Source of the DNA: Vampirovibrio chlorellavorus
Lineage (GTDB): Bacteria > Cyanobacteriota > Vampirovibrionia > Vampirovibrionales > Vampirovibrionaceae
Length of the DNA: 64,000 nucleotides
Assembly: GCA_001858525.1 (NCBI GenBank)
Contig: LAPX01000001.1
Coordinates: 70,307-134,306, forward strand
Reading direction: 5' to 3'
Made by a program: the position numbers and the translations under genes. The notes beneath the pieces are model-generated. The model did not search any database, was not told where the DNA came from, and saw only the letters and a program-made list of their open reading frames with translations. Positions 1 through 23,735 of the stretch are shown here, piece by piece (position 1 is the stretch's first letter; each line of letters opens with the position of its first letter).

Positions 1-103
1 AAGCACCCCCAGCAAGCCAGGCAAGTCAGATCCCCCCAAAGAAAACCGTTTTTTAGAACAAAAAGCCCTTTATGAGCCGTTACTGGACAGACATAAATTT
101 GAT

Positions 104-1855
104 TTGCTTCAGGATGCGAGCAAAAAATACATTCAAGCAACCGATGGCGATGCTCGGGTTGCCGCCTATGCCTGGATTTCGAAAATCCTGAACTGCATTT
201 GCTTGCCGCAAGACACTGTCGGCATTGCGTTCCAGCAGCGTCCCCAACAGGAGGGCAGTGAATCCAGCGTCAAGATGAAGCTAAAACTAGCGCCTCAATT
301 TCCGTTCAGCCTATCTGAAAACTGCAAACTCCTCTCCCCCATTATGCAGTCAGAAGAAAAACCCCTGCTCGCGCTGTACCAAAAAAAGGGTGCCTGGGTT
401 CCCTCTGAGGAAGCGGTCGCTCGGGGACAAACGGCCTTACAGTACGACTCTGTTACCACTGACTTACCCTTGGCACGGCAAAAATCGTTAGCCAAATTAA
501 TCCAAACCGTACCCGGCATTAGACTGGAAGTACAGGATTTTCTGGGTAGAACGCCGCTTCATCATGTATCAGAGCAAGGCTATTTACCCATTGTCAACGC
601 ACTGTTAAAAGCTGACGTGAAAAAAGATGGCATTGATACCACGGGTTGCTCCCCCCTGCATTTGGCGGCAGGCAGAGGGCATCAAGATACCATTCAAGCC
701 TTTTTAGACGCAGGAGCCAATCCTGATGTGTGTACATATATTGGTTCGCCGTTGCATTCAGCCGCTTTTGGGGGACATCGTGCAGCGCTACTACAACTCA
801 TCAAGGCAAATGCCGCTACAGAATCAAGAAATCATGAACGAGAAACCCCCTTGCACATAGCAGCCTCTCAAGGACATCTGGGAGTCGTGCAAGCTCTCAT
901 TGAAGCAAAGGCAAACATCAATGCCAAAACACAAGACGCAAGAACACCCATGCATGCCGCTGCGCATAATGGGGTTTTGCCAGTGTTGGAAGCCCTAATT
1001 CAGGCAAAAGGGGATATACAGGCTCAAGATCATGCCGGATGCAGACCCATACATCTGGCCGCCGAGGCTGAAAATCAAGATGTTTTAGAACGACTGCTGG
1101 CACTCGGGTCGCCTGTCAATTCAGTGGACCGCTCAGGATTAACCCCGCTTCATTATGCCGCTGCGATGGGGCATCAAGGGACCGTGAATACATTGCTTCA
1201 TCATAAAGCCAATGTGTTTGCGACTGATCACACCAGAAAAACGCCACTCCATTGGGCCGCTTTACAGGGCCACTCTGAGACTATCAATATCCTGATTGGA
1301 CATCAGGCTGATATAAATGCAAAAGACAAGAGTGGCCAGACCCCACTTCATCTGGCGGCTGCGGAAGGAAAGTTAGACGCACTGAATACCCTGATTTTAG
1401 AACATTACGCTGACATTCTGGAACCAAACAATCAGGAACAAACACCGCTTCATTTGGCAGCGGCTGCCGGTAAGCTGGATGTGGTGAATAGATTGATTGT
1501 ACTTGGGCATGGCATGGGGATGAATATTAATGCACCCGATGAGCAAGGACAAACACCACTTCATCTGGCGGCCTTACGCGGGCGCGCGACTGTTGTGGAG
1601 ACCTTGCTAGGCAACGGGGCTGATCTTCAAGCCACCACATACCACGGTGGCACACCCTTGCATCTGGCGGCCAGTAGTGGAAAAGCGGCAGTGGTAGCCA
1701 CCCTGATTCAAGCTGGGGCCAAGCTGAATGCCCAGGAATTATCTGGTAAAACACCCCTGCACTACGCGAAAAGTCAGGACATCGCAAATATATTACTGGT
1801 CGCTGGTGCCAAGAGGTCCATTAGAGATCATTCTGGGCACGCGTCAGGCTGGTAA
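104..1855 (+). CDS. Ankyrin-repeat protein with about 13 ANK repeats after a ~150-aa N-terminal region. The frame is open back to nt 2, so the gene may start upstream of the window.
   Basis: Reiterated TPLH(L/I/W)AA...G(H/N)..(V/T)..L(L/I)..GA(D/N)(I/V)NA(K/Q)D ankyrin motifs across the ORF. No in-frame stop between nt 2 and the first ATG at 104. Confidence 0.85.
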   Translation: MLQDASKKYIQATDGDARVAAYAWISKILNCICLPQDTVGIAFQQRPQQEGSESSVKMKLKLAPQFPFSLSENCKLLSPIMQSEEKPLLALYQKKGAWVPSEEAVARGQTALQYDSVTTDLPLARQKSLAKLIQTVPGIRLEVQDFLGRTPLHHVSEQGYLPIVNALLKADVKKDGIDTTGCSPLHLAAGRGHQDTIQAFLDAGANPDVCTYIGSPLHSAAFGGHRAALLQLIKANAATESRNHERETPLHIAASQGHLGVVQALIEAKANINAKTQDARTPMHAAAHNGVLPVLEALIQAKGDIQAQDHAGCRPIHLAAEAENQDVLERLLALGSPVNSVDRSGLTPLHYAAAMGHQGTVNTLLHHKANVFATDHTRKTPLHWAALQGHSETINILIGHQADINAKDKSGQTPLHLAAAEGKLDALNTLILEHYADILEPNNQEQTPLHLAAAAGKLDVVNRLIVLGHGMGMNINAPDEQGQTPLHLAALRGRATVVETLLGNGADLQATTYHGGTPLHLAASSGKAAVVATLIQAGAKLNAQELSGKTPLHYAKSQDIANILLVAGAKRSIRDHSGHASGW

Positions 1856-1976
1856 ACAGAATAACAGTCCTGCTTCAACGAGACCCAAACACTTTATACA
1901 TGCCCGTCACCTTTTCATTCGTACAGTTAAACAATACTAACTGCTGAACGATCTCACTAAATTTTTCCGAAAATTA

Positions 1977-4688
1977 TCAGGCAGCCTGGAACTGTGGCGT
2001 TTCTAAGGTTGTCCAGCCTTGATTACTCCACTGGTAGACCTTGCCAGTCACGGGATCAAACACGGTCAGGTTGATCCATTGATTTTCAACCAGATTTCGC
2101 ACGGCTTGACTGGTTTTGATAATTTCCTGAACCCGTTCCAAGGGTGCTTCAATGCAAACCATCAAACGCTGGGGATAATGATAGGGCGCTCCATCGTTGT
2201 CAAAGAGGGACTCATAGGGCAAGCCCAATTGCAAATCACTACCATTACCAATGTAGGTGCCAAACAGACCTACCACATTGTGCACGTATTTTTTGCCACT
2301 GCCAAAGCGACTCTGATTCAAGGTTGAAAAGCCGTATTGCAAATTAATCCAGGCTCCCACCACCATGGGCGCGTTCATAATGGTGGTCAAAATACTGGCA
2401 TCCGAATCGACTTGCCAGTCATAAGAATGCAAGAAGCAACGTCCCTCCAGATCCAGGGATTTAATTGATTCACGGTTACAAATAATAAAGGCCTGATTTT
2501 TGGACAAACCCCATTCCGGACGGGTTTGAGACCAGTCAAAACTCAACTCCTGAGCCTTCTGAGAGTTGGACTGAAACCCAGGTGTGCTGAACCGTTTTTG
2601 CCGGTTCAGACTATTCAGCTGTGTGGCTTGTTCAAACACTTTTTTCAGGGCCAGAAAATGTTGTTGCTGTTGATTCGGAATCACATCCTCATTCAGAAAA
2701 ACAACATCATCCGTGGTCGTATTATGTTCAGCGGCGATAAAGCGGGTATGCTCCGGAATGGCCCAGCCCGCAAGTATGAGGGCCTCCCGAACATCGGGAT
2801 GATTCAGAATTTGGCACAGTACCAGTGCGTTGTAGCCACCGCCATTGGCACCGCAAGCCCCACAATCCAGAGCAGAGGCGTAGGGGTTATTGCGGCTTCG
2901 GGCGTTATGCCCACAGATAATCACAAACTCGGCAAAAGGTTGACGAAATCCCAGCAGCTTCAGAATACCCTTGGCCATTTCCACTTGCTCAGGGATGGCC
3001 ATACCCAGGGTTGAATGAGAATGATTGCAGGTCTGCACATCCAATTTGGGCATCAGTCCCAACAGGGGGCTCAGGGTATTCACCACGGATTGTCTGACCT
3101 TGCCAACCGGTGAAGCCCAGAACGTATCCTTCAACAGGGTTACGGCATGAAACAACCCAAAACTTTCCACGTAAGAAAAAGTGGCAAAGGTGTCTCGTTT
3201 TATTTTTTTCAGAGCGTAAATCCACTGATTCCGCAAGGGAATCCCCTGACGCAACAACTTGCCGATGGGGTTATTTTCCAGGAACGGCGAAGGCGATTCG
3301 GGAATGGTGTACTGAGGCTCTAGCAGAATAGGACAGAGCGGTACGGCCTCGTTGCTGGCATAACTGATTTTTCCGATAGGAAGCCCAAAGAAGCCGGCAA
3401 AGCCATAGGTTTGAATGTTGCCGCAACTTTCCAGAAATTTGCGATACGGCTCAGAACGAACATCAATGCAAAAGACCGCCTGAGCATCGGGATGCATCTG
3501 TACAGGCTTTGCAGCCTGTTTGGGTTGCTGAAGTTGTTGCGTCAAGTTGACCAACAACGAACGGTTTTGAGCACATTCCAAAGCCCGCATCATCAGGGTC
3601 AGGACTTGAAATTCATCCACAATGTCGAAGTAGCGCAGTAACTCTGGAACATGATTCAACAAAATCGACTCACGTTGCGAATGAGCAGCCGACTGGAAGA
3701 AAGCCGCCTGACTGAGAGTGCGCATTCTGGCGCCATATTGCTGTACCAGATCGGAGTCCGCAGTCATCGGTTCCTTGGAAGCGGAGCGGGGCCAATTACT
3801 TTCCACACAAGCAAAGTGATAAATGAAACAAATCAGCAAATAATCGTTCAGCAGATCCTGATGCCTGGGGTTCTGGGTCTGCCGGTACTGAATGTAACCC
3901 ACCCAGCCTGGCATTTGTTTTAGATGAAATTGAATCAAACGGTCCTGATCCTCAACGGATAAATCCGCTTCCAGGCAGAGCTTTTCCAGACTGCCAATGG
4001 CAGAGGCCGGTGCTTCCGCATCCAGAATCAAACCCTTGACCATCGCGCGCATGGCTTTTTTCGTGGCACCCGGCATGCTGTCATCATGCAGCATTAACTT
4101 GGCCCAACTGGCTCGCAAGGGCAACTCCTGATTGGGCATGGCCCAAATGGCTTGCCCCTCATCCAGATAAGCTGCCAGCCACTTGGTGACTTGCTCATGA
4201 ATCCAATGACTCGTCAGGGAAGGGAGCGGCTGATGGTCTTGCAACAAAGCAGGTGGTAAGGCCTCCCGAATGCGGGACTCCATTTGCGCTTGAGTAGTCT
4301 GAGATACTGCCAATTTAACCGCAGTGCCTTCAGACAGAATGATCGAGATTTCATCACGCAAGAGCTGTTTATAGCTGATGGACTGATTCACAAACCCAAT
4401 CTTGTTATCCAGACCCAATTCAGACTGGGCCTCATCCAAGACCCGATCAATATCAGCCAGGGAGAAGGCTTTCTTTTGAAATAATCGGCGTATGACATCC
4501 TGAGCTTCACTCACTGAGAAGCCCAAATCCAGAGAGGCCTCTTTCAAGGCTTGGGCAAAAGGCAAATGTTCAAAAGTCACCAAAGGATTACAGGCATTAA
4601 ATGTTTGCAGTGGCCAAAGTTTACCGTACTTTGACGCATGATGCTGAATGGTAGCCATCAACGATTCGGATGCTTGGGAGTGACTCAT
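1977..4688 (-). CDS. dabA: DabA-type subunit (DUF2309) of a DAB energy-coupled inorganic-carbon uptake complex.
   Basis: 903 aa. Beta-CA-like metal-site motifs FCIDVRSE (C-x-D-x-R) and [24 protein letters not shown] (H...C). Lies immediately downstream of a NuoL/MrpA-like membrane subunit on the same strand. Confidence 0.75.
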   Translation of the reverse strand: [903 protein letters not shown]

Positions 4689-4723
4689 GGGAATTGCTCC
4701 TTTAAGAAGTCAAAAAACTGGCT

Positions 4724-6268
4724 CTAGAAACGGGCTGAAAAAGTGCTCTGCTGTGGGTTTACACCCGCGGCGTTCAAGAAAAAGACATAACACTTTTCTT
4801 TAAGAGACGTTGGTATCGGTAACAGGTTTAAGGTAGCCAACCAGGCTAGGAAACCGGCTATCAGAAAAACCGCATTGGTTAGCGTCAGCAACATTGGCTG
4901 ATCGGAAATTTCTGCCTGATGGAAAGTCGGGAGCGCGCCCACAGCCAACCATTCATACAGTAAATAGGCCCCCACCAGTAACAAACTGAACAGAGTGGCA
5001 ATGGTCAAGCCTTTGATACCGTTGCCCTTGGTTTTAATAATGGTGGTTTGAATAAACAGCGAAGACAGCACCAGAACGCTCAACAACAGGGCAGGCAGTT
5101 GGGCCAGCAAATCTCTCAGACCTTCAATTTGCAGCAGTAGCAACCAGCTTGCCCCAACACTCGCCGCGATAATACCGGCAGTGCGCAAGCGCTGGGGGAC
5201 GGAGCTTTGGGCCTTCTCCGCCTGCTCGTTTTTCACATTGCGAATTGCTTGTCGGTACTCAATCACACTGCCCGCAGACAGAAACAGGCGCGCTTTAAAA
5301 AAGCCGTGAACCACCAAGTGAAAAATGGCCAAGTGAAAGGCGCCCAGTCCGCATTCCATCATCATAAAGCCCATTTGCCCAACGGTGGAAAACGTCAGGT
5401 AACGCTTTACATCCGATTGTACCAACATGGCGGAACTGCCATACAGTGCGGACACCAAACCCATGATCAAAATAAAGGCCATCACGGTTGGTTGGGAGCC
5501 CAACAGCGGCGCTATTTTGGCAAACAGAACGGCCCCGGCGTTCACAAATCCGGCATGCATAATGGCTGAAACCGGTGTGGGGGCTGTCAGGGTATGAACC
5601 AGCCATTTTTGGAATGGAATAATGGCAGTTTTGGAAAAAGCCCCGATGCTCACGAAAAGCAAAGAGAACAACACCGCCTGATTGTGCGGTTGGCCAGCCA
5701 ATGCGTTCCAGTCAGACAAAAACAAGCTATTACTGAGGGTAATGAGACCCGTTACCCCAATGACCAGAAATAAATCGCCGACTAAAAAACGATTCAAGGC
5801 CATGCGAGCTGAGTTAATGGCCGCCGGTGTTTTGGCATGTCCAATCAGAAAATACATCATAATGCCCGAAAACATCCAGGCCCCAACCGTAATCAGGGCG
5901 TGGTTACTCACCACAAAAAGAAGCAAGGAGGCAATTAACAACTTGATTTTCAGAAAAAACAAGGGGTAGTCTGCATCTGTTTGCAGGTAGTGATAAGCAA
6001 ACCGCTTCACCAGCAGCCCCATCAATAAAATGTAGGGCACCAGCAACGCTTGTAGCGGCCCATCCAGAAAATAACCGGTCGATGACCCAGGATACGTGGT
6101 GAAAGACTGAAAACTCCATAAAACGCCCAGAAACAGGGCAATCCAGGCAGACGTTTCACTCCACTGGCGCACTTCGGTACAGGCCCCTCTGGACTTCAGG
6201 AGGTATAAAGCCAGGGCACTGATTCCGTACAGGGCAACAATAGCGACCAATAACAGGTTCAAAACCAT
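4724..6268 (-). CDS. dabB: DabB-type proton-conducting membrane transporter, NuoL/MrpA/NdhF family.
   Basis: 514-aa polytopic membrane protein with NuoL-like helices (e.g. MHAGFVNAGAVLFAKIAPLLG, SVIEYRQAIR). Paired with the DUF2309 gene 35 nt downstream. Confidence 0.75.
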   Translation of the reverse strand: MVLNLLLVAIVALYGISALALYLLKSRGACTEVRQWSETSAWIALFLGVLWSFQSFTTYPGSSTGYFLDGPLQALLVPYILLMGLLVKRFAYHYLQTDADYPLFFLKIKLLIASLLLFVVSNHALITVGAWMFSGIMMYFLIGHAKTPAAINSARMALNRFLVGDLFLVIGVTGLITLSNSLFLSDWNALAGQPHNQAVLFSLLFVSIGAFSKTAIIPFQKWLVHTLTAPTPVSAIMHAGFVNAGAVLFAKIAPLLGSQPTVMAFILIMGLVSALYGSSAMLVQSDVKRYLTFSTVGQMGFMMMECGLGAFHLAIFHLVVHGFFKARLFLSAGSVIEYRQAIRNVKNEQAEKAQSSVPQRLRTAGIIAASVGASWLLLLQIEGLRDLLAQLPALLLSVLVLSSLFIQTTIIKTKGNGIKGLTIATLFSLLLVGAYLLYEWLAVGALPTFHQAEISDQPMLLTLTNAVFLIAGFLAWLATLNLLPIPTSLKEKCYVFFLNAAGVNPQQSTFSARF

Positions 6269-6366
6269 AAAAAGCCGGCCTCAAAAGTAATCTACGATTA
6301 CCGTCAGTATGAGATAAATCTGTCGATAAGTAAAATTAATGATTTTTATATTTTTTATTACAAAAA

Positions 6367-7248
6367 CTAATGGCCTGCCTCGATGGCGGCCAGAGAGTCC
6401 TGAATAAAATCCTGAAAGGCCAGGATTGCCTGAGAGGGCTGAGGCGTAGCCAACAGCTTGATTTGAGTTGCTTCCAGCGCCGGAAGACGTTCCTGCGCAT
6501 GTGAAGAATGTAACAACTCCGGGGGGACACTGGTAATGGGTAAAACGGTAACCCCCAAGCCCCCGCGCACAGCGGCTATGTTTCCGGCGATACTTTGACT
6601 GGTATAAACTTGTTCCCAGCCGATATTGTGTCGCTCCAGCGCTTCAATGGCCCGAGAACGATACACACAGGGCTGAGGGGCAAGAACCAATCGAACGTTA
6701 CCAGCTTCCAGCGCCTGTTCCAGATTATAGCCCTTTCCCTGAATCCACACCAGTGGCTCTTCCCACAGAGGAATGGCTCGTTCCAGCTGATGCGAAGGTT
6801 CCTGCTTGAACACAATCAAGTCATAATCCCCTTGCTCATAGGCTTCCAGCAGCTTGAGGGTCAGTTCACAGTTCACTTCCAGTCGCACCTGCGGGTACAG
6901 GTTGGTGAATCGAGCCAAAATATTGGGCAAATAGACTGTGGCAAAATCCTCCGGGGAGCCGAAACGGATTCGTCCTGCCACGTTGGTTTGGTTAAACTCA
7001 CTGATCAGCCCTTCGTGCTGAAGCAACAAATTCTCGGCCTTGGCCAAAAACGTTTGCCCTTGCGGGGTCAGGTTTACATTCTTCTTGGCCCGATCGATCA
7101 ACGCCACTCCCAGCAGGGCTTCCAGCTTTTGGATTTGCTGGCTAACAGCAGATTGACTTAGCCCAACCTGATTGGCCGCCTTGGTAAACTGACCGGCATA
7201 GGCCAGCTTAACGAAGGTATAGAGCAACTGGGGATCAATAAATTTCAT
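6367..7248 (-). CDS. LysR-family transcriptional regulator.
   Basis: N-terminal HTH LLYTFVKLAYAGQFTKAANQVGLSQSAVSQQIQKLE. 293 aa with a typical LysR substrate-binding domain. Confidence 0.9.
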   Translation of the reverse strand: MKFIDPQLLYTFVKLAYAGQFTKAANQVGLSQSAVSQQIQKLEALLGVALIDRAKKNVNLTPQGQTFLAKAENLLLQHEGLISEFNQTNVAGRIRFGSPEDFATVYLPNILARFTNLYPQVRLEVNCELTLKLLEAYEQGDYDLIVFKQEPSHQLERAIPLWEEPLVWIQGKGYNLEQALEAGNVRLVLAPQPCVYRSRAIEALERHNIGWEQVYTSQSIAGNIAAVRGGLGVTVLPITSVPPELLHSSHAQERLPALEATQIKLLATPQPSQAILAFQDFIQDSLAAIEAGH

Positions 7249-7268
7249 CAGGCGCTTTCAGGCAAGAT

Positions 7269-7949
7269 TCAAGGTACCTGTTTTTCAATCTGACCCAGGG
7301 TCATATCAGGGCGAACTTCTTCTTCCAGATTGGCGATGACCGCAGACAGGGGTTCTGGTTTACAAGAGAAGGGGTCAATCAGCATGGTTTCCCCGCTTTG
7401 CAAGCGGTACTTCCAGCCATACAAATGAAGAGCCCCCGCTTCCAGACGTTTGGCCACTTCCGGGTAGGTCGCCAGGTTCTGCAATTGTTGAATAACATTC
7501 CGACGAATCAACTCATTCAAACATTCATCCAAATCCTGATGAACTTCCAGCGAATCAAGAACCTCCAAATTAGGTGCCAACCACTGATAAATCGAAGACT
7601 CCTGTGGTAAATCCTTCAGACTGAACATGGCCTTCAAGGCAGCGCAGTCGGTATGACCACAAACAATAATATGGTGAACATTCAGCATGGTTAGCGCAAA
7701 CTCTATGGCAGCAGCTTCACTACTGCTTCCCCCCACCTGGTATTTGGGTATCAAATTCCCAGGGTTTTTGACAACAAAAAGCGTCCCGGGGGGCGACTGA
7801 GTAATGATGGCTGGCTCCACCCGCGAATCGCAGCAGGTAAACATCAAGGCCACCGGATGCTGCTCGTGAGACAAAGGTTGAAAAAATTCCTTGTTCGGCT
7901 CAAATACCTTATCTTTAAAGACGATGGTGCCTTCTGCCAGCCTTTTCAT
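7269..7949 (-). CDS. Beta-class carbonic anhydrase.
   Basis: CCDSRVEP (CxDxR) and HTDCAAL (HxxC) zinc-ligand motifs. 226 aa. Confidence 0.85.
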   Translation of the reverse strand: MKRLAEGTIVFKDKVFEPNKEFFQPLSHEQHPVALMFTCCDSRVEPAIITQSPPGTLFVVKNPGNLIPKYQVGGSSSEAAAIEFALTMLNVHHIIVCGHTDCAALKAMFSLKDLPQESSIYQWLAPNLEVLDSLEVHQDLDECLNELIRRNVIQQLQNLATYPEVAKRLEAGALHLYGWKYRLQSGETMLIDPFSCKPEPLSAVIANLEEEVRPDMTLGQIEKQVP

Positions 7950-8159
7950 GGATGAATGTTGCCTCTTTTTTTAGCCTTTTCCCCAATCATACTACGGTCC
8001 AGCCGTAAAGCTGTCCAGCATCCAGTCGCACTGGCGCTGACACTGGAAGAGGGAAGCCTATTCATGCTTAAAAGCTGTCTCACTAAAGCGTGTTACCATT
8101 CCACAGTCAAAAACTGCCACTCGTTCCCCGATGGCCTATTTAGTTTCAATTAGTGCTGC

Positions 8160-8618
8160 TTAGTCGTCCGAATCGGCCAGGCGTTGCTGATAGGTAGCCA
8201 AGGCCAGGGAGACCAAATCCTGAAAGGCTACAGAGGCTTTTTCCGCGCCGTAATTTTCATGGTACTCGGCGGTGAATAAACCAATCAGCCCGGCCAGCAC
8301 TTCAAAGACGGCCTGGGTATCAATTTCATCATCGTCATCGGTACAATTTTCCAGCAAAAGCGGGTACAGTTCTCCCATAATATCCAGGGCCAAATCGCTC
8401 TGAAATTCAGGAGCTGCCGGTTCTTCGGGCGTGGCTTTGCGAGCAAAGGCATCCCCTTTGGCACTCACACTAGCGGTCACCGTTTTCTGATTCGAGCCCT
8501 TTTGACTGGTTTCTTTTGAGCTCGTGGCTTTTTGACTCGTGCCCTTTTTACTCGTTTCCTTGGTTTTCTCTCCGGAACCACTGCCCTTTTTTACTGCCAT
8601 TTCCGCCTCCCGAATCAC
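8160..8618 (-). CDS. Hypothetical protein with a K/S/T-rich basic N-terminus and an acidic C-terminal domain. The start may be the internal MAVKKG.
   Basis: ORF only. Compositionally biased N-terminus (KTKETSKKGTSQKATSSKETSQKG). No recognisable family. Confidence 0.45.
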   Translation of the reverse strand: MIREAEMAVKKGSGSGEKTKETSKKGTSQKATSSKETSQKGSNQKTVTASVSAKGDAFARKATPEEPAAPEFQSDLALDIMGELYPLLLENCTDDDDEIDTQAVFEVLAGLIGLFTAEYHENYGAEKASVAFQDLVSLALATYQQRLADSDD

Positions 8619-8697
8619 ATAATTTTTAGCCAGTTTACCTGTTTTCCGGCATCCGTGCTAGCCCTGAGCCCGGTCTATAAAATAGCCCTCAGCGGTC

Positions 8698-9906
8698 TTA
8701 AGCCTTTAAGACAGGGCGCTGCCCAGCCTCTTCAATCAGGCCCCGCAATTCGGATTCGGTCCACACGGGCACTGGCGGCTTGTTCCTTAAAAATTGAGCA
8801 TAGGATAAATCATCGGTGTTTCCGGCGTGACTGGCCCCCCACTCAAAGGCCTGCTGGGCCATCTCCAAGCGTTCCGGAACCCAGCTGAATTGAATCTGCG
8901 GGATTTGCTGACCCAACAGTAAACGTGCCACCGAAACCAGTTTCAAGGCTTCCGATTCGGAGATCAGTCCCGCTTGCGGCCCGGCAATGGGTTGATGGGA
9001 GGGATGAGGCCACAGTTGAATGATCAATCGTTGAAAGGCACCGGGGTGAGCCTCCTGAAATTCACGCAGCAAGGCCAAATGGGCCACTCGCTGCTCCCGG
9101 CTTTCCAAAGGGCCAGCTTCCAACCGGGCCAGGGTGGGCATGCCCCGCTGATGGGCCAAGGCCACGATCTCCAGCCACCGTTTTACAGTCAGCTTTTTGG
9201 GTGCAATGCGAGCCCGATGAGCATCCTCTAGAATTTCTGTGCCGAAACTTTCCAGAACCCGCACCCCATGATCCTTTAGGCAGTCCAGTATGTAGGCCTC
9301 GCTACGGTTGCTCACCACGGCCAAAAAGGCAATCTCATCGGGCGAAAAACCCTGAATCCGGCAGGAGGCAACCTGATCCTGAATGTGATTTAGCACCCGC
9401 AAATAGGTTTTCAGCACCGTGGCAGCCTCTAATCCGGGAATAACCAACTCCGAGTCAAAGCCGCCGCCACTCACGGTCAGCCATTGGGATTGCTGGGTTT
9501 TGACCGCTTGCAAAATGGCATCAATATCATCAATGGACACACGATAAGCCTGGGGATTGCCCTGATTTGCAGGGTAAGGATAAAGCGCCGGGGCCATCTC
9601 GCACACATTGGTGAGGAACAAAGAGTGTCCCGTGCCGTAGGCAATGTCGCCACCTGCCTGTTGCGCTTTCAGGGCCTCAGCCACCGAGCGCAACCGGGCA
9701 CAATCGGGCGGTGCTTGTAGAGCCAGTAAGGGCACCGCTTGTGAAGGGGTCAGGGGCTGCCCATCTTCAACGGCATCCAGCACAGCCGAGGCATTCCCCT
9801 GAACTGAGCGGGCAGTGACTGTTCGATTGCTTAAGGCTTGAGAAAACATACTGCTATTGTAGAAGAAACAGAAAACAGAAACAGTTTTCCGGCACGGGGG
9901 CGGCAA
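8698..9906 (-). CDS. MqnC/MqnE (aminofutalosine / cyclic-DHFL synthase) family homolog that lacks the canonical radical-SAM CxxxCxxC cluster motif. The probable start is the internal MFSQALS.
   Basis: Family-typical blocks are present: GDIAYGTGHSLFLTNVC, TVSGGGF, LESFGTEILEDAHRARIAPKKLTVKRWLEIVALAHQRGMPTLARLEAG...RVAHLALLREFQEAHPGAFQRLI. Where CxxxCxFCAF is expected, the sequence is TNVCEMAPALYPY (checked on the DNA). Confidence 0.6.
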   Translation of the reverse strand: MPPPCRKTVSVFCFFYNSSMFSQALSNRTVTARSVQGNASAVLDAVEDGQPLTPSQAVPLLALQAPPDCARLRSVAEALKAQQAGGDIAYGTGHSLFLTNVCEMAPALYPYPANQGNPQAYRVSIDDIDAILQAVKTQQSQWLTVSGGGFDSELVIPGLEAATVLKTYLRVLNHIQDQVASCRIQGFSPDEIAFLAVVSNRSEAYILDCLKDHGVRVLESFGTEILEDAHRARIAPKKLTVKRWLEIVALAHQRGMPTLARLEAGPLESREQRVAHLALLREFQEAHPGAFQRLIIQLWPHPSHQPIAGPQAGLISESEALKLVSVARLLLGQQIPQIQFSWVPERLEMAQQAFEWGASHAGNTDDLSYAQFLRNKPPVPVWTESELRGLIEEAGQRPVLKA

Positions 9907-10005: not shown

Positions 10006-11103
10006 TTAGGCAATCCAGGCCGGGATGCCATTGGGCTCCGCCAGTTGATTGATGGTCAGGCCATTCACAGTGGTGCTGAGAATATTGCCCAGATCAGCTG
10101 TGGGGGCCTCAGGTTCTGCCAATAAGTTCATCAGGTCCGATTGGGCCTGAATGGGGACAATCAGGTTTCCAGCAGCCAGACCAAAGGGCTGCCCGGCCCA
10201 AACACCCGGAATAATACCGATGGCCGATGCTGGTGGCTGAGTGACCCGGGCTTGACTCAGCAAGAATTCCAACTGGGGAAGCGCTTGCTGGGCCGCGGTC
10301 AATTGAGTGGTTTTTTCAGTAATCTGGGCTTGCAATTCGGCGGCTCGGGCTTGTACACGGGCCTTATCTTCCTTGCCCGTCTGATCGGTCTTAAGCACTT
10401 TGGCCCGAAGATCTTGCAGATCCGTAATGTCTTTTTGCAATGTACTGATTTGAGCTTTCAACTGTAGAATGGCCAAGCCAATTTGAGTGACATTGTTGGT
10501 GTTGGGAGCGACCGGTTGACCCACAGGCTGAAATAAGGGGGAGCCACTGAGGAACGTATTGGGAAACAGTTGAGCCTGAGAAGCAACGGGGGTGACAAAA
10601 TTCTGGAAGGGGGGCACCACAGGGGTTACAAAAGGGTACAGGGGTGGCACCAGATTGGGCTGAAATAAGCCATTTCCGCCAAAAATCTTATTGGTGGAAT
10701 CCATGGTTCCCAGCAAAACGTTCAGGGAGTTCGGATTTCTCCAAATCAGGGGGTTAAAAGCTGTCAAATCCTTGTTCAGACTGGCTGAAGGGGTGAAGAT
10801 GTTGCTGCCAAAACCGGGGGATAAAATATTACCGATGAGTCCGGTGGTCCCGTTTAAAACACTGACCGGATTGGCATTTTTGGGAATGGGATTGTTTCCC
10901 AGCAACAAAAACGGAGAGTTGCTGCCGCCGGAGGAAATACTGCCGGAAAAATCATTGACTGAACCCAAAATATCGCGAGGGTGTAAAAAGTCATTGCCCC
11001 GACCATCGAAAACACTACCGGACAATACGCCAGCATTGACAGTGGTACCGGCAAAAGCACGCTGGTTGGTCAACGGGGTAAAAGAACTAGACAGAGTCGA
11101 CAT
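10006..11103 (-). CDS. Hypothetical protein. The N-terminal half is G/N/S/P-rich and low-complexity; there is a central coiled coil.
   Basis: Long ORF. The coiled-coil segment is LQLKAQISTLQKDITDLQDLRAKVL...AELQAQITEKTTQLTAAQQ. Confidence 0.55.
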   Translation of the reverse strand: MSTLSSSFTPLTNQRAFAGTTVNAGVLSGSVFDGRGNDFLHPRDILGSVNDFSGSISSGGSNSPFLLLGNNPIPKNANPVSVLNGTTGLIGNILSPGFGSNIFTPSASLNKDLTAFNPLIWRNPNSLNVLLGTMDSTNKIFGGNGLFQPNLVPPLYPFVTPVVPPFQNFVTPVASQAQLFPNTFLSGSPLFQPVGQPVAPNTNNVTQIGLAILQLKAQISTLQKDITDLQDLRAKVLKTDQTGKEDKARVQARAAELQAQITEKTTQLTAAQQALPQLEFLLSQARVTQPPASAIGIIPGVWAGQPFGLAAGNLIVPIQAQSDLMNLLAEPEAPTADLGNILSTTVNGLTINQLAEPNGIPAWIA

Positions 11104-12246: not shown

Positions 12247-13401
12247 TTAGGGCGTTTTAGAGGATGAAGCAGAGTTATCATAACTGAAAGGATGACGGAT
12301 CCGTTCTTTCAAGGATGTTTTTTGATCCGGTTGGGGTGGTGGTGGCACCGGAAATGGCAACCAGCCATTGGCCCCCACAGCAGGGGCGGTATCATTCAGG
12401 GAAACCATTTGGGTCCGCTCACTGGAAACATCGTAGCGCCACACGCCCAAAAACTTCTTTTCTTTCAAATCGTAGGCCCAGGCCTTAATCAACACCACGT
12501 CATCGCTATTGGGTTCCCACCCCAGCGGTTGAATGTCCCAGTTCAGCTTTTCAATGTGTGCTAAATTGCCATGCTGAATCCAGTAATGCTGAATAACCCG
12601 CTGCACTTCCGGGTAAATGGTCACGGTGCCCTTGGCCTGATCATGGATGAGAATATTGGTGGTGCGCACCCCCAGGTGCAAAATGCCACTGCGCTCCTTG
12701 AACAGCAGACGATTGCCGGTGTAAGACCAATCCACCACGGTTAGGGTTCTAAAATCAAAGCGACCCACCCGGTTAAAACCCACATCGGCCAGGGATTTTC
12801 GAATGCGGGTGGTCTTTCGGGGATCAAAACGAGCGGCATAGGTAGCAAAGGCCACCGGGGGATCAGGCTTGGCTTGGGCCGCCTCACTGGGCAGTCGTTC
12901 CAGCGGCGGCTGAGGGAGCGGCGTGACCGGGACCCAGTACAATCTGGAAATGGTCTGGCGATCGTCTGGGGTAAACAGCACCTCTGTGTAGACAAAGGCG
13001 GTTTTGTCCGGGGCAACCACCGGGGGACTCTGAATCAGGCGTCGCCCTTCCAGATTCCACAGATCCAACTCTCGAGGATAGGTATTATAAGGTTCATAGC
13101 GGACATAGTCCGGGATATTGGACGGGCTATCCACGGACAGAGAAGCGTTATTGGCTGGCATCCCATAAACGGGCCGCGTTTCCGGGGCCATGGGCGGCGC
13201 AGGGGTGACCTGAATGGGGATAGCCGGTTTTTTGGCGGCCTCTACCCAGCCCAAAGCCAGGACGAAAAGGGCCATTAGCCCACACACGCTCAAGCGCCAA
13301 AACCGCTGCAACATCGGGATACGCATAGCGTTATTGTGGCACGGCGGTAAGATGTCGCCGTCCTCAATCCAAAGGAACTTCTGGCTAAAAGGATGAAGCA
13401 A
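12247..13401 (-). CDS. Hypothetical exported or membrane-anchored Pro-rich protein. The start is probably an internal Met (MRIPMLQRFWRLSV...).
   Basis: N-terminal hydrophobic segment LSVCGLMALFVLALGWVEA. No recognisable catalytic motifs. Confidence 0.55.
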   Translation of the reverse strand: MLHPFSQKFLWIEDGDILPPCHNNAMRIPMLQRFWRLSVCGLMALFVLALGWVEAAKKPAIPIQVTPAPPMAPETRPVYGMPANNASLSVDSPSNIPDYVRYEPYNTYPRELDLWNLEGRRLIQSPPVVAPDKTAFVYTEVLFTPDDRQTISRLYWVPVTPLPQPPLERLPSEAAQAKPDPPVAFATYAARFDPRKTTRIRKSLADVGFNRVGRFDFRTLTVVDWSYTGNRLLFKERSGILHLGVRTTNILIHDQAKGTVTIYPEVQRVIQHYWIQHGNLAHIEKLNWDIQPLGWEPNSDDVVLIKAWAYDLKEKKFLGVWRYDVSSERTQMVSLNDTAPAVGANGWLPFPVPPPPQPDQKTSLKERIRHPFSYDNSASSSKTP

Positions 13402-13913: not shown

Positions 13914-14355
13914 TAAGTAGAATATCGCTTCAAATTTCGGGCGCAACTGTTTTCGTACAATTTCGCCCCACGTGTTTACAATTATTTACATAGAGTGTTC
14001 AAATCACACTAAAACCGTGGCTTTTTGATTTCAGCCCAATCATCACTGACCGTCCTTTAAAATCAGGGCCATTTTGACAGCAGACTAATTGACAGTTGCC
14101 CCAAAATTTCTCCCGTAGCAAATGCACACCATGACTGGTAAGTGTGGCCCAAACACGGGATTCTCACTGTTACATTTGCTTACATGGCGACCCTGCTTGG
14201 TGTTTCCAAGACACGGACTTTGGCAAATCACCACACCGACTGAGAATCCTCCATCATGAATTCCCCCGGTGGAGCAAAGAAAATGAAAGTAAAAGTCGAA
14301 CCAGGCCCTTGGGGTGCGATAGAATAAGGCATCGAGCAAGAGATCAGCGAACCCC

Positions 14356-15567
14356 ATGGATTTTTCTGGAAAAACAATTGTCGTAGCCATTACCGGAGGC
14401 ATTGCCGCCTACAAAGCCTGCGACCTCATACGGGAACTCTACCGGCGAGGTGCCCACCGGGTGCTGGGTATTATGACCCCGACCGCAGAAGCCTTTCTCC
14501 CCTCACTGACGGTACAGGCCTTGAGCCGCTACCCAGTGTACACGTCCGAATTGTCCGTGGATGATCATGGGGTGCCCATTCACATCGTGCTGGCCCAGCA
14601 GGCCGACGCCTTGCTGATTGTCCCTGCCACCACCGACACCCTGGCCAAGCTGGCCCATGGTCTGGCCGATAATCTGGTGACCACCACGGCCATTACCTTT
14701 ACCGGCAAGCCGGTTCTGATAGCCCCGGCCATGAACACCCGCATGTGGGATCATCCCATCAGCCAACAAAATCTGGAAACCCTTAAAAGCGTTCCCAATT
14801 ACCAAGTGATCGAACCGGCCTCCGGCAGTCTGGCCTGCGGGGAAGTGGGCGAGGGCCATTTGGCTGACCAAGAGACCATACTACAAGCTCTATACGCCGC
14901 TCTGCATCCCCAGCGAGATTTGTACAACGGCGTGAAGGTTGTGGTCACCGCCGGAGGCACTTCTGAGCCCATTGATCCGGTGCGGGTCATCTCCAATCGC
15001 AGCTCCGGCAAAATGGGGTTGGCCTTGGCCGATGAACTGGCCGCAATGGGGGCGGAGGTCATCCTGATTACCACCCGTCCGCCCAGTGGCAGGCGTTATC
15101 CGATCATGACCGTGCAGACGGCCGCCGACATGAAAGAGGCCGTGGAGGCTCAAGCGGCACAAAGCCAATTGGTACTCATGGCTGCGGCCATATCCGATTA
15201 CCGGGTGGACAACCCTTCGGCCCAAAAACTGAAGCGCACGGCCAGCGAGTCCCGGCAACTGGACTTGGTACCCAACCCGGATATTTTAGCCGGTCTGGGG
15301 GCCAATAAACCTGCTGGACAAATTCTGGTGGGGTTTGCCGCCGAATCACAGGCACTCATTCATCACGCCACCCAAAAGCTACAGGCCAAAAACCTGGATG
15401 CCATTGTGGCCAATGACATCAGCCGCAGTGATATTGGCTTTGAGGCCGATCACAACGAAGTGACCGTCCTGTTTCCCCATCGGGCGCCTGAAATGCTAAC
15501 CCGCAGCAGTAAGCCTGAAATCGCCAGGCAGTTGTTACTGTTATTACACCAGCAGTTTTTTGCATAA
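14356..15567 (+). CDS. coaBC: Bifunctional phosphopantothenoylcysteine decarboxylase / phosphopantothenate-cysteine ligase.
   Basis: Flavoprotein N-terminal domain (KTIVVAITGGIAAYKACDLIRELYRRG) and a DFP C-terminal ligase domain. 403 aa. Confidence 0.9.
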   Translation: MDFSGKTIVVAITGGIAAYKACDLIRELYRRGAHRVLGIMTPTAEAFLPSLTVQALSRYPVYTSELSVDDHGVPIHIVLAQQADALLIVPATTDTLAKLAHGLADNLVTTTAITFTGKPVLIAPAMNTRMWDHPISQQNLETLKSVPNYQVIEPASGSLACGEVGEGHLADQETILQALYAALHPQRDLYNGVKVVVTAGGTSEPIDPVRVISNRSSGKMGLALADELAAMGAEVILITTRPPSGRRYPIMTVQTAADMKEAVEAQAAQSQLVLMAAAISDYRVDNPSAQKLKRTASESRQLDLVPNPDILAGLGANKPAGQILVGFAAESQALIHHATQKLQAKNLDAIVANDISRSDIGFEADHNEVTVLFPHRAPEMLTRSSKPEIARQLLLLLHQQFFA

Positions 15568-15576
15568 AGCAACAGA

Positions 15577-15598
15577 CCTTCCGAATCGTTTCGGAAGG
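15577..15598. terminator. Hairpin between the convergent coaBC and AAA-ATPase genes; putative terminator.
   Basis: CCTTCCGAA-TCGT-TTCGGAAGG 9-bp stem. Only a weak T-run follows. Confidence 0.35.
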
Positions 15599-15624
15599 CC
15601 TGCCAATTTTCCACTTGAGTTCTA

Positions 15625-17121
15625 TCAAACGTACATATTTTTCCAGGCCGTATCCCGCTCAGGCTTGACCTCAAACTTGGCTATCATTTGTTTATAGCTT
15701 TCAGCCATATCATCGCTGACTGAGGGATGCACCTTTTTCAGGGCCTTGCTGAAATGCGCCTCGGTGATTTTTTCCCGCTGCGCTAAGGCAAACCGGGAAG
15801 CCTGATTCACCAACTCCTTCAAGTCCGCAATAGAATACCCATGGGTCTTTGCGGCCAGACTTCCAACATCCAGCCCATCGGCTAAAACCTGGGCAGATCG
15901 CTGCTTTAAGTACATATCCAGCACCTGTTTGCGGCTGGGCTCATCGGGAGCGCCTACGTAAATTTTGGCGTTCATCCGCCCTGAGCGTACTAGGGCCGGA
16001 TCCAGCATGGCTGGCAAATTGGTGGTAGCCACCACGAACACATTCTTCTGGGCGCATTCATTCAACTGGTTCAGGAACTCGGCCACTTCTTCATTGTGAT
16101 GGGTATTGACGGACTCTCCATTCCGCTGCGGGGCCACCGCGTCTACCTCATCAATCAACAGCACCGTGGGCCGCTTGGTCTTCTTAGCCATCTCGGCGGC
16201 TGCGTCAAAAGATTCCCCGATAAACTTAGAGGTTTCATGGATATAGGGCGATCCAATGGTGGACGGGTGAATCTCCAGGAAGTTGGCCCCGGCCTCTTCC
16301 GCCACAGCCTTGGCAAAAAAGGTTTTTCCATTGCCAGGTGGGCCATACAACAGCACCCCAGACGCCGAATTTTCCAGTCCGTAATCTTTATAAAGCTGAG
16401 GGTTTTGAATCTGATCCACCAGCAACCGGTTCAAATCCGATTTCAATCCCTCCATTCCGGCGATTCGCTTAAAGCCCAGCCGCTCGGCATTGGGTCCAAA
16501 GGGACTCTGTTTGTAGGAAATAACCTTAATGGGATTGTTTTCGGTCTTGTTATTTTTAAACCGATTGTAGTCACGATCATCGTCACTGTCAGAACCACTC
16601 CAGTCAGACTCGTCCGCCCGTTTATTCCAGGGGGTCTTTAAAATGTCTTCAAATGCCTTCTTCACACTGGCCTGCACCAACAACCGCAGGCCTTCATCAT
16701 CAGAGGCAGGGGCCACATCAGGCACTCGCCGGGGCGGGGTAGAAGTCGCCGTCAGAGAATCTTTCGGTGCCACGGGCTTTTGAAACGTTGGCCCATCCTG
16801 CTTGGGCCGTTTTCGCAAATTATAACGATTGTCAGAAAGTGGCTTTTCACTCAAAGAAGCCAACGTGGACTCTTCAGTCAAAGACGATGAGGTCCACTGG
16901 CTTTGACTTTCCTCGGTGTCAGAAGGTGAGTAGCCTTCCTCTGAATCACTTTCGCTGGGTGTCGGGGTGCGTTTGCGACGCCCTGCAAAATGAACCTCAT
17001 CCCGCTGCAATAACGAGGCACTTGGCCCGATGTGTGGAGACACCTCTCGTTGACCGTTCTGTTTTCTAAGCGGTGTCACCTGAGCTTGCTTGCCGAAAAC
17101 GGCACTCGAAATCCCGACCAT
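15625..17121 (-). CDS. AAA+ ATPase of the classic CDC48/FtsH-type clade, with a ~270-aa acidic Ser/Asp/Glu-rich disordered N-terminus.
   Basis: Walker A GPPGNGKT, Walker B LLIDEVD, second region of homology ALVRSGRMNAKIYVGAPD. The N-terminus is low-complexity (DSDSEEGYSPSDTEESQSQ...). Confidence 0.8.
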   Translation of the reverse strand: MVGISSAVFGKQAQVTPLRKQNGQREVSPHIGPSASLLQRDEVHFAGRRKRTPTPSESDSEEGYSPSDTEESQSQWTSSSLTEESTLASLSEKPLSDNRYNLRKRPKQDGPTFQKPVAPKDSLTATSTPPRRVPDVAPASDDEGLRLLVQASVKKAFEDILKTPWNKRADESDWSGSDSDDDRDYNRFKNNKTENNPIKVISYKQSPFGPNAERLGFKRIAGMEGLKSDLNRLLVDQIQNPQLYKDYGLENSASGVLLYGPPGNGKTFFAKAVAEEAGANFLEIHPSTIGSPYIHETSKFIGESFDAAAEMAKKTKRPTVLLIDEVDAVAPQRNGESVNTHHNEEVAEFLNQLNECAQKNVFVVATTNLPAMLDPALVRSGRMNAKIYVGAPDEPSRKQVLDMYLKQRSAQVLADGLDVGSLAAKTHGYSIADLKELVNQASRFALAQREKITEAHFSKALKKVHPSVSDDMAESYKQMIAKFEVKPERDTAWKNMYV

Positions 17122-17404: not shown

Positions 17405-18292
17405 TTAGACAGAGCCAGCCAGTTCCGGCAGCACATCAATGAATTCAGGCTCAATTTTGTCCTGAATCACCCCGATGGCTTGTCCCCGCCATAACAGCAG
17501 CTTCACAGCCTTGCGGATTTCCACATCAGCGTCCAGGGTCATCTCGTTCACGTACATGCCCACAAAGGCGTCAGCGGTCTTTTTATCCAGGCCACGGGCG
17601 AACTGCAAGGCATAATCCAGGGCTTCTTCCCGATGTTTCAAGCCATGCTCAATGCTGCGCTTTAACACCCGTCCAATTTTCTGAATCATTTCCGGCCCTA
17701 AATCCCGACGGATGGCGTTGCCGCCCAGGGGCAGGGTCAGGTTGCACTCTTCAAACCACCATTCGCCCAGATCCACAATCTTCACAAAGCCCTGTTGCTG
17801 ATAGGTCAGCTGGCCTTCGTGAATGATCAAACCGGCTGCAAACTCACCGCTTTCCACCCGTTCCATAATCTGATCAAAAGGCACCACAGCGGTTTTCAGT
17901 TCCGGCTCCCAAATTTTAAGGGCCAGGTAAGCCGTGGTCATTTCACCAGGGATGGCCACCGTAATTTGCTTCAATTCATCACGGGTCATTGGTTTTTTGG
18001 CAATCAGAACCGGGCCGTACTTGTCCCCGACACTGGAACCCACATTGAGTATGGCGTATTTGTCATGCAAATGGGCATAGGCGTGATAAGAAATGGCGGT
18101 CAACTCGTAGGTGCCATTCAAGGCTTCCCGGTTCAGGGTTTCAATATCGGTCAAGATGTGCTCGAAGGTCAGGCCTTCGGCATCGATTTTGTGATGGGCC
18201 AGAGCCCAGAACATAAAAGCATCGTCGGAGTCCGGGCTGTGGGCCACTCGAATGACAGCCGGGGCGGGTTTGATTTCGCTCATAATTAGCAC
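17405..18292 (-). CDS. mqnD: 1,4-dihydroxy-6-naphthoate synthase (MqnD, futalosine menaquinone pathway).
   Basis: The N-terminal segment SPDSDDAFMFWALAHHKIDAEGLTFEHILTDIETLN resembles the MqnD consensus SPCPNDTFMF.AL. About 290 aa. Confidence 0.7.
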   Translation of the reverse strand: MLIMSEIKPAPAVIRVAHSPDSDDAFMFWALAHHKIDAEGLTFEHILTDIETLNREALNGTYELTAISYHAYAHLHDKYAILNVGSSVGDKYGPVLIAKKPMTRDELKQITVAIPGEMTTAYLALKIWEPELKTAVVPFDQIMERVESGEFAAGLIIHEGQLTYQQQGFVKIVDLGEWWFEECNLTLPLGGNAIRRDLGPEMIQKIGRVLKRSIEHGLKHREEALDYALQFARGLDKKTADAFVGMYVNEMTLDADVEIRKAVKLLLWRGQAIGVIQDKIEPEFIDVLPELAGSV

Positions 18293-23026: not shown

Positions 23027-23641
23027 TCAATCTCCTGAAGACTCTATTCTCGTTATTAATTCTTCAATGGATAGGGGTGGAAGAAACTTATGAACAACAG
23101 CATGACAGTTCGGACAAAGTGGTATTAAATCCTTAATCGGATCTACTTGATAAGACTCTTTAATTAAGGAGAGTGGGATTTTGTGGTGTACATGTATAAA
23201 CCCACACAATTCTTCTCCGTATTTCGATGAAAAATCAAGCTTGCAAGCATAACACTGTGCACCATAATGTTGGATGCAAGCTTCACGTGCCTTTTGATCT
23301 CTTTCATATCGATTGACCAGCGCTCTCAGCGCCTTGCCTTCTCGAAAACTACTTTCAGAGACAATCTGTTCCTCACCGTCTAAAGCAACCCGGACATAAT
23401 TAGGCAAAGAAGAAATGCGTTTAGGAACATTAATTCTTTTACCCACTTTGACACCTGGTGTATTTACTAATTCATTTATAGTCAAAAAACAAATATATCC
23501 ATATTTGTCGGTCAGAGCAGCAGGAAAAAGCGCTTCATCAATGAGTCCATAAAAATTTCCCCACTCACTATAAAGTGCAGATTTAACGTCAAGTCCCCAA
23601 ATTTTTTGAAGCTGTTTGCCTGTTATCGTTGGCTTACCCAT
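23027..23641 (-). CDS. HNH endonuclease-family protein. Visibly AT-richer than its surroundings.
   Basis: CYAC...HVHHKIPLS...LIPLCPNCHAVVH HNH motif. I chose the start at the internal MGKPTITGK because the longer ORF overlaps the tRNA. Confidence 0.65.
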   Translation of the reverse strand: MGKPTITGKQLQKIWGLDVKSALYSEWGNFYGLIDEALFPAALTDKYGYICFLTINELVNTPGVKVGKRINVPKRISSLPNYVRVALDGEEQIVSESSFREGKALRALVNRYERDQKAREACIQHYGAQCYACKLDFSSKYGEELCGFIHVHHKIPLSLIKESYQVDPIKDLIPLCPNCHAVVHKFLPPLSIEELITRIESSGD

Positions 23642-23659
23642 CAAAATTAACCCAAAAAA

Positions 23660-23735
23660 TGGTGGCCCCAGCAGGATTCGAACCTGCAACCAACGAATTA
23701 TGAGTTCGCTGCTCTAACCGTTGAGCTATAGGGCC
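23660..23735 (-). tRNA. tRNA with anticodon CAT. Elongator Met or Ile2 type, not initiator-like. Encoded CCA.
   Basis: Manual fold: acceptor GGCCCUA/UGGGGCC, D-stem GCUC/GAGC, anticodon stem GCGAA/UUCGU with loop CUCAUAA, T-stem GCAGG/CCUGC with loop UUCGAAU, 3' ACCA. Confidence 0.85.

Follow-up and report, generated by a model that had tools for sequence, protein, structure and literature searches.

A predicted DAB2-type pump and carbonic anhydrase module with a candidate LysR-dependent promoter in a non-photosynthetic relative of the cyanobacteria

Gene content of the dab locus

The stretch of DNA analysed here (64,000 nucleotides of contig LAPX01000001.1, hereafter the window) carries four co-oriented genes on its minus strand. 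They encode a beta-carbonic anhydrase (CA), a LysR-type transcriptional regulator (LTTR), and DabB and DabA, the two subunits of a DAB pump for CO2 hydration. The intergenic gaps are 20 nt (CA/lysR), 98 nt (lysR/dabB) and 35 nt (dabB/dabA). Gene families were assigned by Pfam, NCBIfam and PDB matches. A preliminary description, made from the letters of the sequence, had proposed these four genes and gaps, and we found the open reading frames (ORFs) at exactly those coordinates (Table 1), with family profile matches that agree with the four identities and with the pairing of DabB and DabA. We consider the locus to be, probably, a chromosomal module of a non-photosynthetic Vampirovibrionia (Melainabacteria) bacterium in which a DAB2-type pump and a CA, organised in two units with a LysR-activated dabBA, supply bicarbonate for heterotrophic growth. 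The four genes are ordinary members of a described family, and a very strongly conserved candidate regulator-binding promoter 5' of dabB is the only new detail. As DAB pumps were described in 2019, their structures appeared in 2026 and MpsAB has been characterised in heterotrophs, the functions of such genes are already well understood, and the locus mainly extends the DAB family to the non-photosynthetic sister lineage of the cyanobacteria.

DabA covers positions 5-747 of the 747 in the PF10070 profile (DUF2309/YbcC/MpsB; E=3.6e-207) and aligns with DabA2 of the solved DAB2 complex (PDB 9rd0_A, E=1.5e-98). Since NCBIfam has no model that matches DabA, the assignment was made by Pfam and PDB. 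The metal-site motifs read C407-I-D409-V-R411-S-E, C-G-H594-N and D-C609-G-A-C; those quoted in the preliminary description are present, but its string DCGACGG was one residue off and the sequence has DCGACGA. Among 17 clade members, the positions that match the key residues of DabA2 (Table 1) show little or no variation, and none of the 17 departs from the Zn ligands C407, D409, H594 and C609. Substitution of E444, the DabA2 residue aligned with E508, kills activity (DAB2 structure and mutagenesis study, Lo et al. 2026).

DabB matches PF00361 (Proton_antipo_M, E=3e-40), has about 13 hydrophobic segments and aligns over residues 76-478 with DabB2 (PDB 9rd0_B, E=1.4e-32); NuoL/NdhF were also matched. 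It keeps D165, K213, H238, H317, H321 and K325, that is, the NuoL-like Lys/His/Lys proton path together with D165/K213. M132 replaces the Glu of NuoL transmembrane segment 5 (TM5; E144), as I151 does in DabB2, with W-M132-F aligned to W-E of NdhF; the mapping was made through the NdhF alignment, not by direct alignment to DabB2, and is slightly indirect. In DabB2, the I151 type of substitution has been tied to efficient proton transfer (Lo et al. 2026). As judged from these alignments, DabA and DabB retain all the residues found essential in the 2026 cryo-EM and mutagenesis work on DAB2.

No ORF for a dabC lies between or after dabB and dabA, as a three-subunit DAB1 would need, and the complex is therefore DAB2-like, not DAB1-like. 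In the window, and in nearly every related locus, a NuoL-like gene stands directly 5' of dabA, and no Nuo or Mrp genes were found among the window genes checked. On these grounds, a Nuo/Mrp origin of the NuoL-like gene was rejected, and its pairing with the DUF2309 gene is retained. DabB and DabA would thus form a DAB2-type complex. CO2 would enter the cell by diffusion and be hydrated at a Zn site buried in DabA, and proton flow through DabB would make the hydration one-directional, trapping carbon as bicarbonate.

The CA matches Pro_CA (PF00484, E=1.5e-39). Its zinc site and catalytic dyad read C39-C-D41-S-R43 and H99-T-D-C102, and C39, D41, R43, H99 and C102 are invariant in 12 homologues, in keeping with the intact CxDxR/HxxC motifs reported before. 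It has no visible N-terminal signal-like segment and is of cytosolic type. The closest solved relative is Synechocystis CcaA (PDB 5swc, E=2.1e-45, residues 1-192), which fits the cyanobacterial ancestry of the lineage. The gene is expected to make a conventional reversible cytosolic beta-CA, which would provide a basal, equilibrating route to bicarbonate. A C-terminal tail of approximately 35 residues (about 190-226; window 7269-7380) was conserved only in the Vampirovibrio-like clade when the 12 homologues were compared. Its pattern, IDPFSCKPEPLSAVIA.LEEE.RP.MTLGQ.EKQ, occurs only in Vampirovibrio-like CAs of the four-gene layout and is missing from more distant homologues; the tail could be an interaction peptide.

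The gene 3' of dabA is convergent and encodes a 583-residue ankyrin-repeat protein (window 104-1855, plus strand), so the cluster ends at dabA. The nucleotide composition of the module is that of its flanks. An exact-sequence look-up of the window DabA in the contig collection gave no match, and the gene context was taken from homologues.

Candidate operator and promoter between lysR and dabB

Read on the minus strand, the 98-nt gap holds the dyad ATTAGTTTTTGTAAT (ATTAG-N5-GTAAT), 16 nt, the 15-mer ATTAATTTTACTTAT, 14 nt and the hexamer CATACT. The 15-mer occurs as a single exact copy in the 64-kb window and forms an invariant block in a gap alignment of five loci, namely those of the window and of V. 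chlorellavorus, plus three with a DabA 49-55% identical. Across 963 kb of DabA loci (labelled L below), exact copies were found only just 5' of dabB (L001-L007, L038 and L082), and L020, L029 and L030 have a copy with one mismatch in the corresponding position. L090 has a further exact copy, and L087 one with a single mismatch. Loci in which DabA identity is as low as 32-55% have the identical 15-mer 5' of dabB. Furthermore, an equivalent dyad (consensus ATTAG-N5-CTAAT) is located exactly 16 nt 5' of the 15-mer in L001, L002, L004, L007, L020, L029, L082, L087 and L090, and the -10 position is kept as CATACT, TATACT or CATAGT in L001, L002, L004, L006, L007, L087 and L090. The spacings (16 nt between the two boxes and 14 nt from the 15-mer to the -10) are conserved in at least 10 loci. 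Conservation of lysR and of this two-box arrangement with its weak -10 extends well outside the clade. The operator was not clearly recognisable in the GC-rich Sphingomonas locus L094.

When the hexamer is taken as -12..-7, the centre of the dyad falls near -65 and the 15-mer covers about -41..-27. In classical LTTR-activated promoters, the recognition site (RBS) lies near -65 and the activation site (ABS) over the -35 region. The gap would accordingly hold a putative LysR-dependent promoter of textbook layout, with the geometry of a classical RBS and ABS. The same boxes are present where lysR is divergent from dabB, which assigns them to the dabB promoter and not to a lysR-derived transcript. 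The dyad pattern taken alone had 7 matches in the window against 3.7 expected, and 10 of 100 shuffles reached 7. Its frequency is no lower than chance predicts, and weight is given only to the composite and to the conservation of that composite across loci. An Rfam search of positions 1..9000 returned nothing relevant and no family matched the gap, which leaves an RNA-element reading without support.

The preliminary description had pointed to a GATAA direct repeat at 6323..6341 as a LysR site. The location was right, since this range covers the 15-mer, but it holds one GATAA copy only; plus-strand copies lie at about 6308-6312 and 6325-6329. The repeat was rejected as an operator because the second copy is lost even in V. 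chlorellavorus. A separate observation comes from L038 (4548-6935), an AT-rich and unrelated locus in which a different beta-CA gene stands directly 5' of the exact 15-mer and dabB. No lysR was found there within 5 kb upstream or 7 kb downstream, and the regulator is presumably encoded elsewhere.

A candidate promoter for CA-lysR was found 5' of the CA gene by a consensus scan (Table 1), and its core, GTAGTATGATT, is conserved in L001 and, as GTGTATGATT, in L090. No convincing LysR box was found 5' of CA; the stretch CTAATTGAAACTAAAT near 8135 was considered and discarded, as it is not conserved in L001. The CA and lysR genes, 20 nt apart in the window, overlap by 4 nt in L001 and L087. Because of the candidate internal promoter 5' of dabB, the locus probably consists of two units, CA-lysR and a LysR-regulated dabBA, rather than one operon, and the co-transcription of all four genes proposed earlier is not favoured. 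CA-lysR may be read from its own promoter 5' of CA, and a LysR tetramer at the operator might activate dabBA when some metabolite reports carbon shortage. By analogy, we infer that dabBA would be induced under carbon limitation.

The regulator family and the distribution of the layout

The regulator matches HTH_1 (E=4e-20) and LysR_substrate (E=2.9e-31) in Pfam. Its identity is 72% in loci whose DabA reaches about 50%, so that the regulator is more conserved than the pump. Its best NCBIfam match is LrhA (137 bits), while the CbbR model reaches 59.8 bits, its cut-off being 450, and neither a CmpR nor an NdhR model is among the best 25 NCBIfam matches. The likeness to CcmR/CmpR drawn in the preliminary description hence stands as an analogy but not as orthology.

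We surveyed regulator neighbourhoods in a small sample of four named genomes and 46 loci, the latter being the evaluable metagenomic loci with dabB followed by dabA. An ortholog-like LysR gene adjoins dabB in 11 of the 46 loci (9 divergent and 2 co-directional), another LysR gene in 9 (20 with any LysR), and none in the remaining 26. All four regulator orthologues from Alphaproteobacteria, which are 43-45% identical, adjoin inorganic-carbon genes (Table 1). The 127-residue protein of 'Ca. Paracaedibacter symbiosus' matches a Xanthomonas iota-CA structure (PDB 3H51, 2e-16) and ends ..EHHSS... Related operator boxes are visible in L092, L093 and L095. For this small sample, the pattern suggests a general carbon-acquisition LTTR subfamily. 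It is conceivable, though we would put it at somewhat less than an even chance, that it represents an undescribed cross-phylum LysR subfamily for inorganic-carbon acquisition in heterotrophs, acting through one two-box operator (ATTAG-N5-CTAAT, 16 nt, then a ATTAATTTTACTTAT-like box). Such a subfamily would switch on DabBA in Vampirovibrionia, Sphingomonas and Rhodothalassiaceae, SbtA and DUF6671 in Gemmobacter, or an iota-CA homologue in 'Ca. Paracaedibacter', and would offer a handle on how non-autotrophic bacteria sense CO2 or bicarbonate shortage. The operator and the subfamily might then be used to find the signal of inorganic-carbon scarcity and to build CO2-responsive expression switches. 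A sharply defined candidate operator and a possible regulator subfamily are the only points that are modestly new.

DUF6671 (PF20376) recurs with carbon-uptake genes. It is fused to the DabA C-terminus in several homologues (proteins P0039, P0045, P0057, P0065 and P0080), follows sbtA in Gemmobacter (L092 4097-4915) and stands beside a beta-CA near dabBA in L004 (13723-14328). No copy was found in the window.

The sole match in the species-representative genome collection is V. chlorellavorus, with a DabA 78% identical and the same four-gene order, in which CA and lysR overlap by 4 nt. The metagenomic contig L090 has the four genes in common with the window, as well as SpoU, CoaBC and AAA genes in the flanks. 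The four-gene order is also found in L087/L088, where the CA is only 62% identical and the flanks differ. Only members of the Vampirovibrio-like clade show the full CA-lysR-dabB-dabA order (the window, L001, L090, L087/L088 and probably L089), and sister loci with DabA 49-55% identical keep lysR-dabBA without a CA. A beta-CA detectable with the window query adjoins in just two of 80 metagenome loci, L038 and L066; in L066 it lies directly 3' of dabA, and in L004 a beta-CA is two genes away. In L087, several transposase genes (DDE_Tnp_1, IS21 IstB and Mu-type; 13992-16717) directly follow the four-gene module, and the upstream neighbours, PGK and GatB, are unrelated. The module may move as a block.

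The preliminary description had regarded a CA and a DAB pump in one operon as a notable arrangement. Precedents exist in Bacillus subtilis (canC-ndhF-mpsB), Staphylococcus sciuri and B. anthracis, and a LysR gene adjoining nuoL-ybcC was described in the 2017 COGNAT paper (Klimchuk et al. 2017). As mpsAB operons with a CA gene inside or next to them have been documented before, the arrangement is a variant of something known.

Table 1 Features of the module, DabA residues aligned with DabA2, and loci with regulator orthologues. Positions are those of the window unless a locus is named.
Feature	Position	Strand	Remarks
CA-lysR promoter, candidate (TGGACA, 17 nt, TAGTAT)	8017..7989	minus	consensus scan 9/12
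Beta-CA gene	7949..7269	minus	226 aa
LTTR gene (lysR)	7248..6367	minus	293 aa
Candidate LTTR recognition site (RBS), ATTAGTTTTTGTAAT	6371..6357	minus	interrupted dyad fitting T-N11-A; overlaps lysR stop codon
Candidate LTTR activation site (ABS), 15-mer ATTAATTTTACTTAT	6340..6326	minus	overlaps -35-like hexamer
-35-like hexamer TTTACT	6334..6329	minus	inside the 15-mer
-10-like hexamer CATACT	6306..6311	minus	17-nt spacer from TTTACT
dabB	6268..4724	minus	514 aa; GAGG 10 nt 5' of ATG
dabA	4688..1977	minus	903 aa
DabA C407 / D409 / R411 / S412			DabA2 C351 / D353 / R355 / S356 (alignment to 9rd0_A)
DabA E508			DabA2 E444, finger-motif Glu (alignment to 9rd0_A)
DabA H594 / C609			DabA2 H524 / C539 (alignment to 9rd0_A)
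DabA H655 / D660			DabA2 H585 / D590 (alignment to 9rd0_A)
DabA L728			DabA2 L658, in place of beta-CA Gln (alignment to 9rd0_A)
Regulator orthologue, Sphingomonas changnyeongensis	L094 1864-6873		with dabB-dabA, divergent
Regulator orthologue, Rhodothalassiaceae metagenome-assembled genome	L095 6001-11142		with dabB-dabA-PII, co-directional
Regulator orthologue, Gemmobacter aquarius	L092 4097-5892, 6001-6861		with SbtA-type bicarbonate transporter and DUF6671
Regulator orthologue, 'Ca. Paracaedibacter symbiosus'	L093 5504-5887, 6001-6888		with 127-aa CaMKII-AD protein

Proposed role, alternatives and known systems

V. chlorellavorus is an obligate epibiotic predator of Chlorella and lacks photosynthesis and carbon-fixation genes (PMC4451040). 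None of the about 45 further window genes that were checked encodes Nuo, Mrp, Rubisco, PRK or carboxysome components; they are housekeeping or host-interaction genes, including those for futalosine-pathway enzymes, DnaB, UvrD, Dxr, alanine dehydrogenase, and ankyrin and TPR proteins. DAB homologues in Rubisco-less genomes were noted from the first DAB description (Desmarais et al. 2018/2019), and in staphylococci MpsAB and CA are interchangeable as bicarbonate suppliers for heterotrophic growth in air. Since the closest genome is that of a predator without carbon fixation, we favour an MpsAB-like heterotrophic supply of bicarbonate over an autotrophic CO2-concentrating mechanism (CCM). When ambient CO2 is low, the bicarbonate would serve biotin carboxylases and further carboxylation steps of anabolism, as with staphylococcal MpsAB, and DabBA would be the energy-driven route switched on by the LysR protein. 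An algal predator would then invest in energy-coupled CO2 capture, which seems sensible beside a photosynthesising host that strips CO2 from the water.

Several observations made around the module concern its host and neighbours. Ankyrin-repeat proteins are encoded at 104-1855 and 49687-51654, both on the plus strand. The former contains 8 or more repeats and bears a weak resemblance to Legionella Dot/Icm Ank effectors; eukaryote-like domains of this kind are in keeping with a lineage that attacks algal cells. Genes of the futalosine route to menaquinone flank the module (an MqnC/MqnE/CofH-like radical SAM protein at 8698-9906 and VitK2_biosynth at 17405-18292, both minus strand), as do three conserved proteins without a family match (8160-8618, 10006-11103 and 12247-13401). 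Further along, the 1280-residue protein encoded at 26774-30616 (minus strand) has a STAND-like signalling architecture, in which a double zinc ribbon at the N-terminus is combined with an AAA_16 ATPase domain and with TPR repeats at the C-terminus. An HNH endonuclease gene lies nearby at 23027-23689.

A number of points weigh against the reading of the locus as two units that supply bicarbonate to a heterotroph. The candidate promoter and the two-unit model are drawn entirely from sequence conservation. The -35/-10 pair matches at 8 of 12 positions and was not listed by the consensus promoter scan (threshold 9/12), although a weak match is as expected for an activator-dependent promoter. No terminator was predicted in the 98-nt gap by the terminator scan, and read-through from the CA promoter is therefore possible. 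The absence of Rubisco refers to one 64-kb window of the genome. A reversible cytosolic CA should dissipate the bicarbonate surplus made by a DAB, and in staphylococci a CA co-expressed with MpsAB gave no benefit or a slight cost, so that the retention of a CA beside a one-way pump is surprising. Some of these points would suit a single four-gene operon read from the promoter 5' of CA, with the gap acting as a LysR roadblock, an autoregulatory site or an mRNA element: besides the missing hairpin and the weak -35/-10 match, all four genes are co-oriented with short gaps, and the RBS overlaps the lysR stop codon, so that bound LysR could modulate read-through. We nevertheless judge this arrangement unlikely. 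The boxes and the -10 keep the same spacing in L020, L029, L030 and L082, where lysR is divergent and an upstream transcript cannot enter, and they are present in L038 without any lysR upstream. An RBS near -65 with an ABS over the -35 is, moreover, the layout of LTTR-activated promoters, and the mRNA-element variant finds no matching RNA family.

On the side of function, the CA might be a dedicated DabBA partner that docks to or tunes the pump, or sets the local CO2 supply. The proposed action of EcaB on the cyanobacterial CupA/CupB CO2-hydrating complexes offers an analogy. A partner role would be in line with a CA closest to cyanobacterial CcaA, with a tail conserved only in the clade of the four-gene layout, with a CA-lysR-dabBA order kept in different genomic contexts, and with independent CA-DAB adjacencies in L038, L066, L004 and Firmicutes. 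Close relatives (DabA 49-55% identical) dispense with the CA, however, a beta-CA adjoins so few of the 80 metagenome loci, and the canonical catalytic residues make plain CA activity the simplest reading; we regard a dedicated partnership as improbable. Still less credit is given to a role of DabBA mainly in ion or pH homeostasis or in membrane potential, in which CO2/bicarbonate chemistry would drive or buffer the process instead of supplying carbon. The first description of MpsAB was of a membrane-potential-generating system, the use of Na+ has been argued for it, COGNAT proposed an exergonic reaction that drives ion export, and a reversible CA paired with the pump would permit CO2/HCO3- cycling coupled to proton movement. 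On the other hand, DAB2 fails to complement Na+-transporter mutants and needs no Na+, and its structures support proton-driven one-way hydration. DabB M132 is a DabB2-type replacement of the TM5 Glu, DabA has the coupling residue E508, and regulator orthologues flank other carbon-acquisition genes (sbtA and the iota-CA homologue). An autotrophic CCM feeding Rubisco was rejected and has, in our estimate, next to no chance of being correct. In its favour, DABs were first found as part of a carboxysome-based CCM, photosynthetic cyanobacteria are the sister group of the lineage and the CA is similar to a carboxysomal enzyme, but there are no linked genes for Rubisco, PRK or the carboxysome shell in the window, and the nearest named species, V. 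chlorellavorus, has neither photosynthesis nor carbon fixation (PMC4451040). DabA homologues are, besides, common in Rubisco-less genomes, and a free cytosolic CA would short-circuit a CCM, as is established in CCM physiology and was argued in the staphylococcal MpsAB work. Reversible CAs and one-way CO2 pumps have been brought together repeatedly and independently, which is a physiological puzzle.

Among known systems, the pump is most readily compared with DAB2 of Halothiobacillus neapolitanus (Desmarais et al. 2018/2019; 9rd0, Lo et al. 2026). Both have dabB followed by dabA, no dabC, and PF00361 with PF10070; the Zn ligands, the Asp-Arg dyad, the finger Glu and the equivalents of H585, D590 and L658 are kept, and NuoL E144 is replaced by a hydrophobic residue in DabB. 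They differ in that the host here is a non-autotroph and that a dedicated LysR gene and a beta-CA gene are adjacent. The window DabA is approximately 30-35% identical to DabA2 over residues 151-878 and, at 903 residues, has a divergent N-terminal 150 residues. Like MpsAB of Staphylococcus aureus, the system appears to be a DAB homologue for bicarbonate supply in air-grown heterotrophs, and a beta-CA gene lies in or beside the operon as in B. subtilis canC-ndhF-mpsB (ybcF-ndhF-ybcC), B. anthracis and S. sciuri. In those mpsAB operons the CA is downstream and no LysR is embedded, whereas the order here is CA-lysR-dabB-dabA with a candidate internal promoter and a CcaA-like CA.

The LysR gene at the 5' end of nuoL-ybcC recalls 'clade A' of COGNAT (Klimchuk et al. 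2017), and this association recurs in 20 of the 46 evaluable loci. There the LysR gene is divergent, whereas the Vampirovibrio-like one is co-directional and the box overlaps its stop codon, not its promoter; we did not find the operator sequence described in the passages of that paper that were consulted. The regulator also resembles CcmR/NdhR, CmpR and CbbR, LTTRs whose control of inorganic-carbon uptake genes responds to metabolites, in that it is tied to such genes and the promoter has an RBS/ABS layout, but it is not orthologous to them. Finally, the CA shares its catalytic residues with Synechocystis CcaA (IcfA, 5SWC), the beta-carboxysomal CA. Unlike CcaA, it belongs to a host without a carboxysome, has H-T-D-C-A-A in place of H-S-H-C-G-A and carries the clade-specific C-terminal tail.

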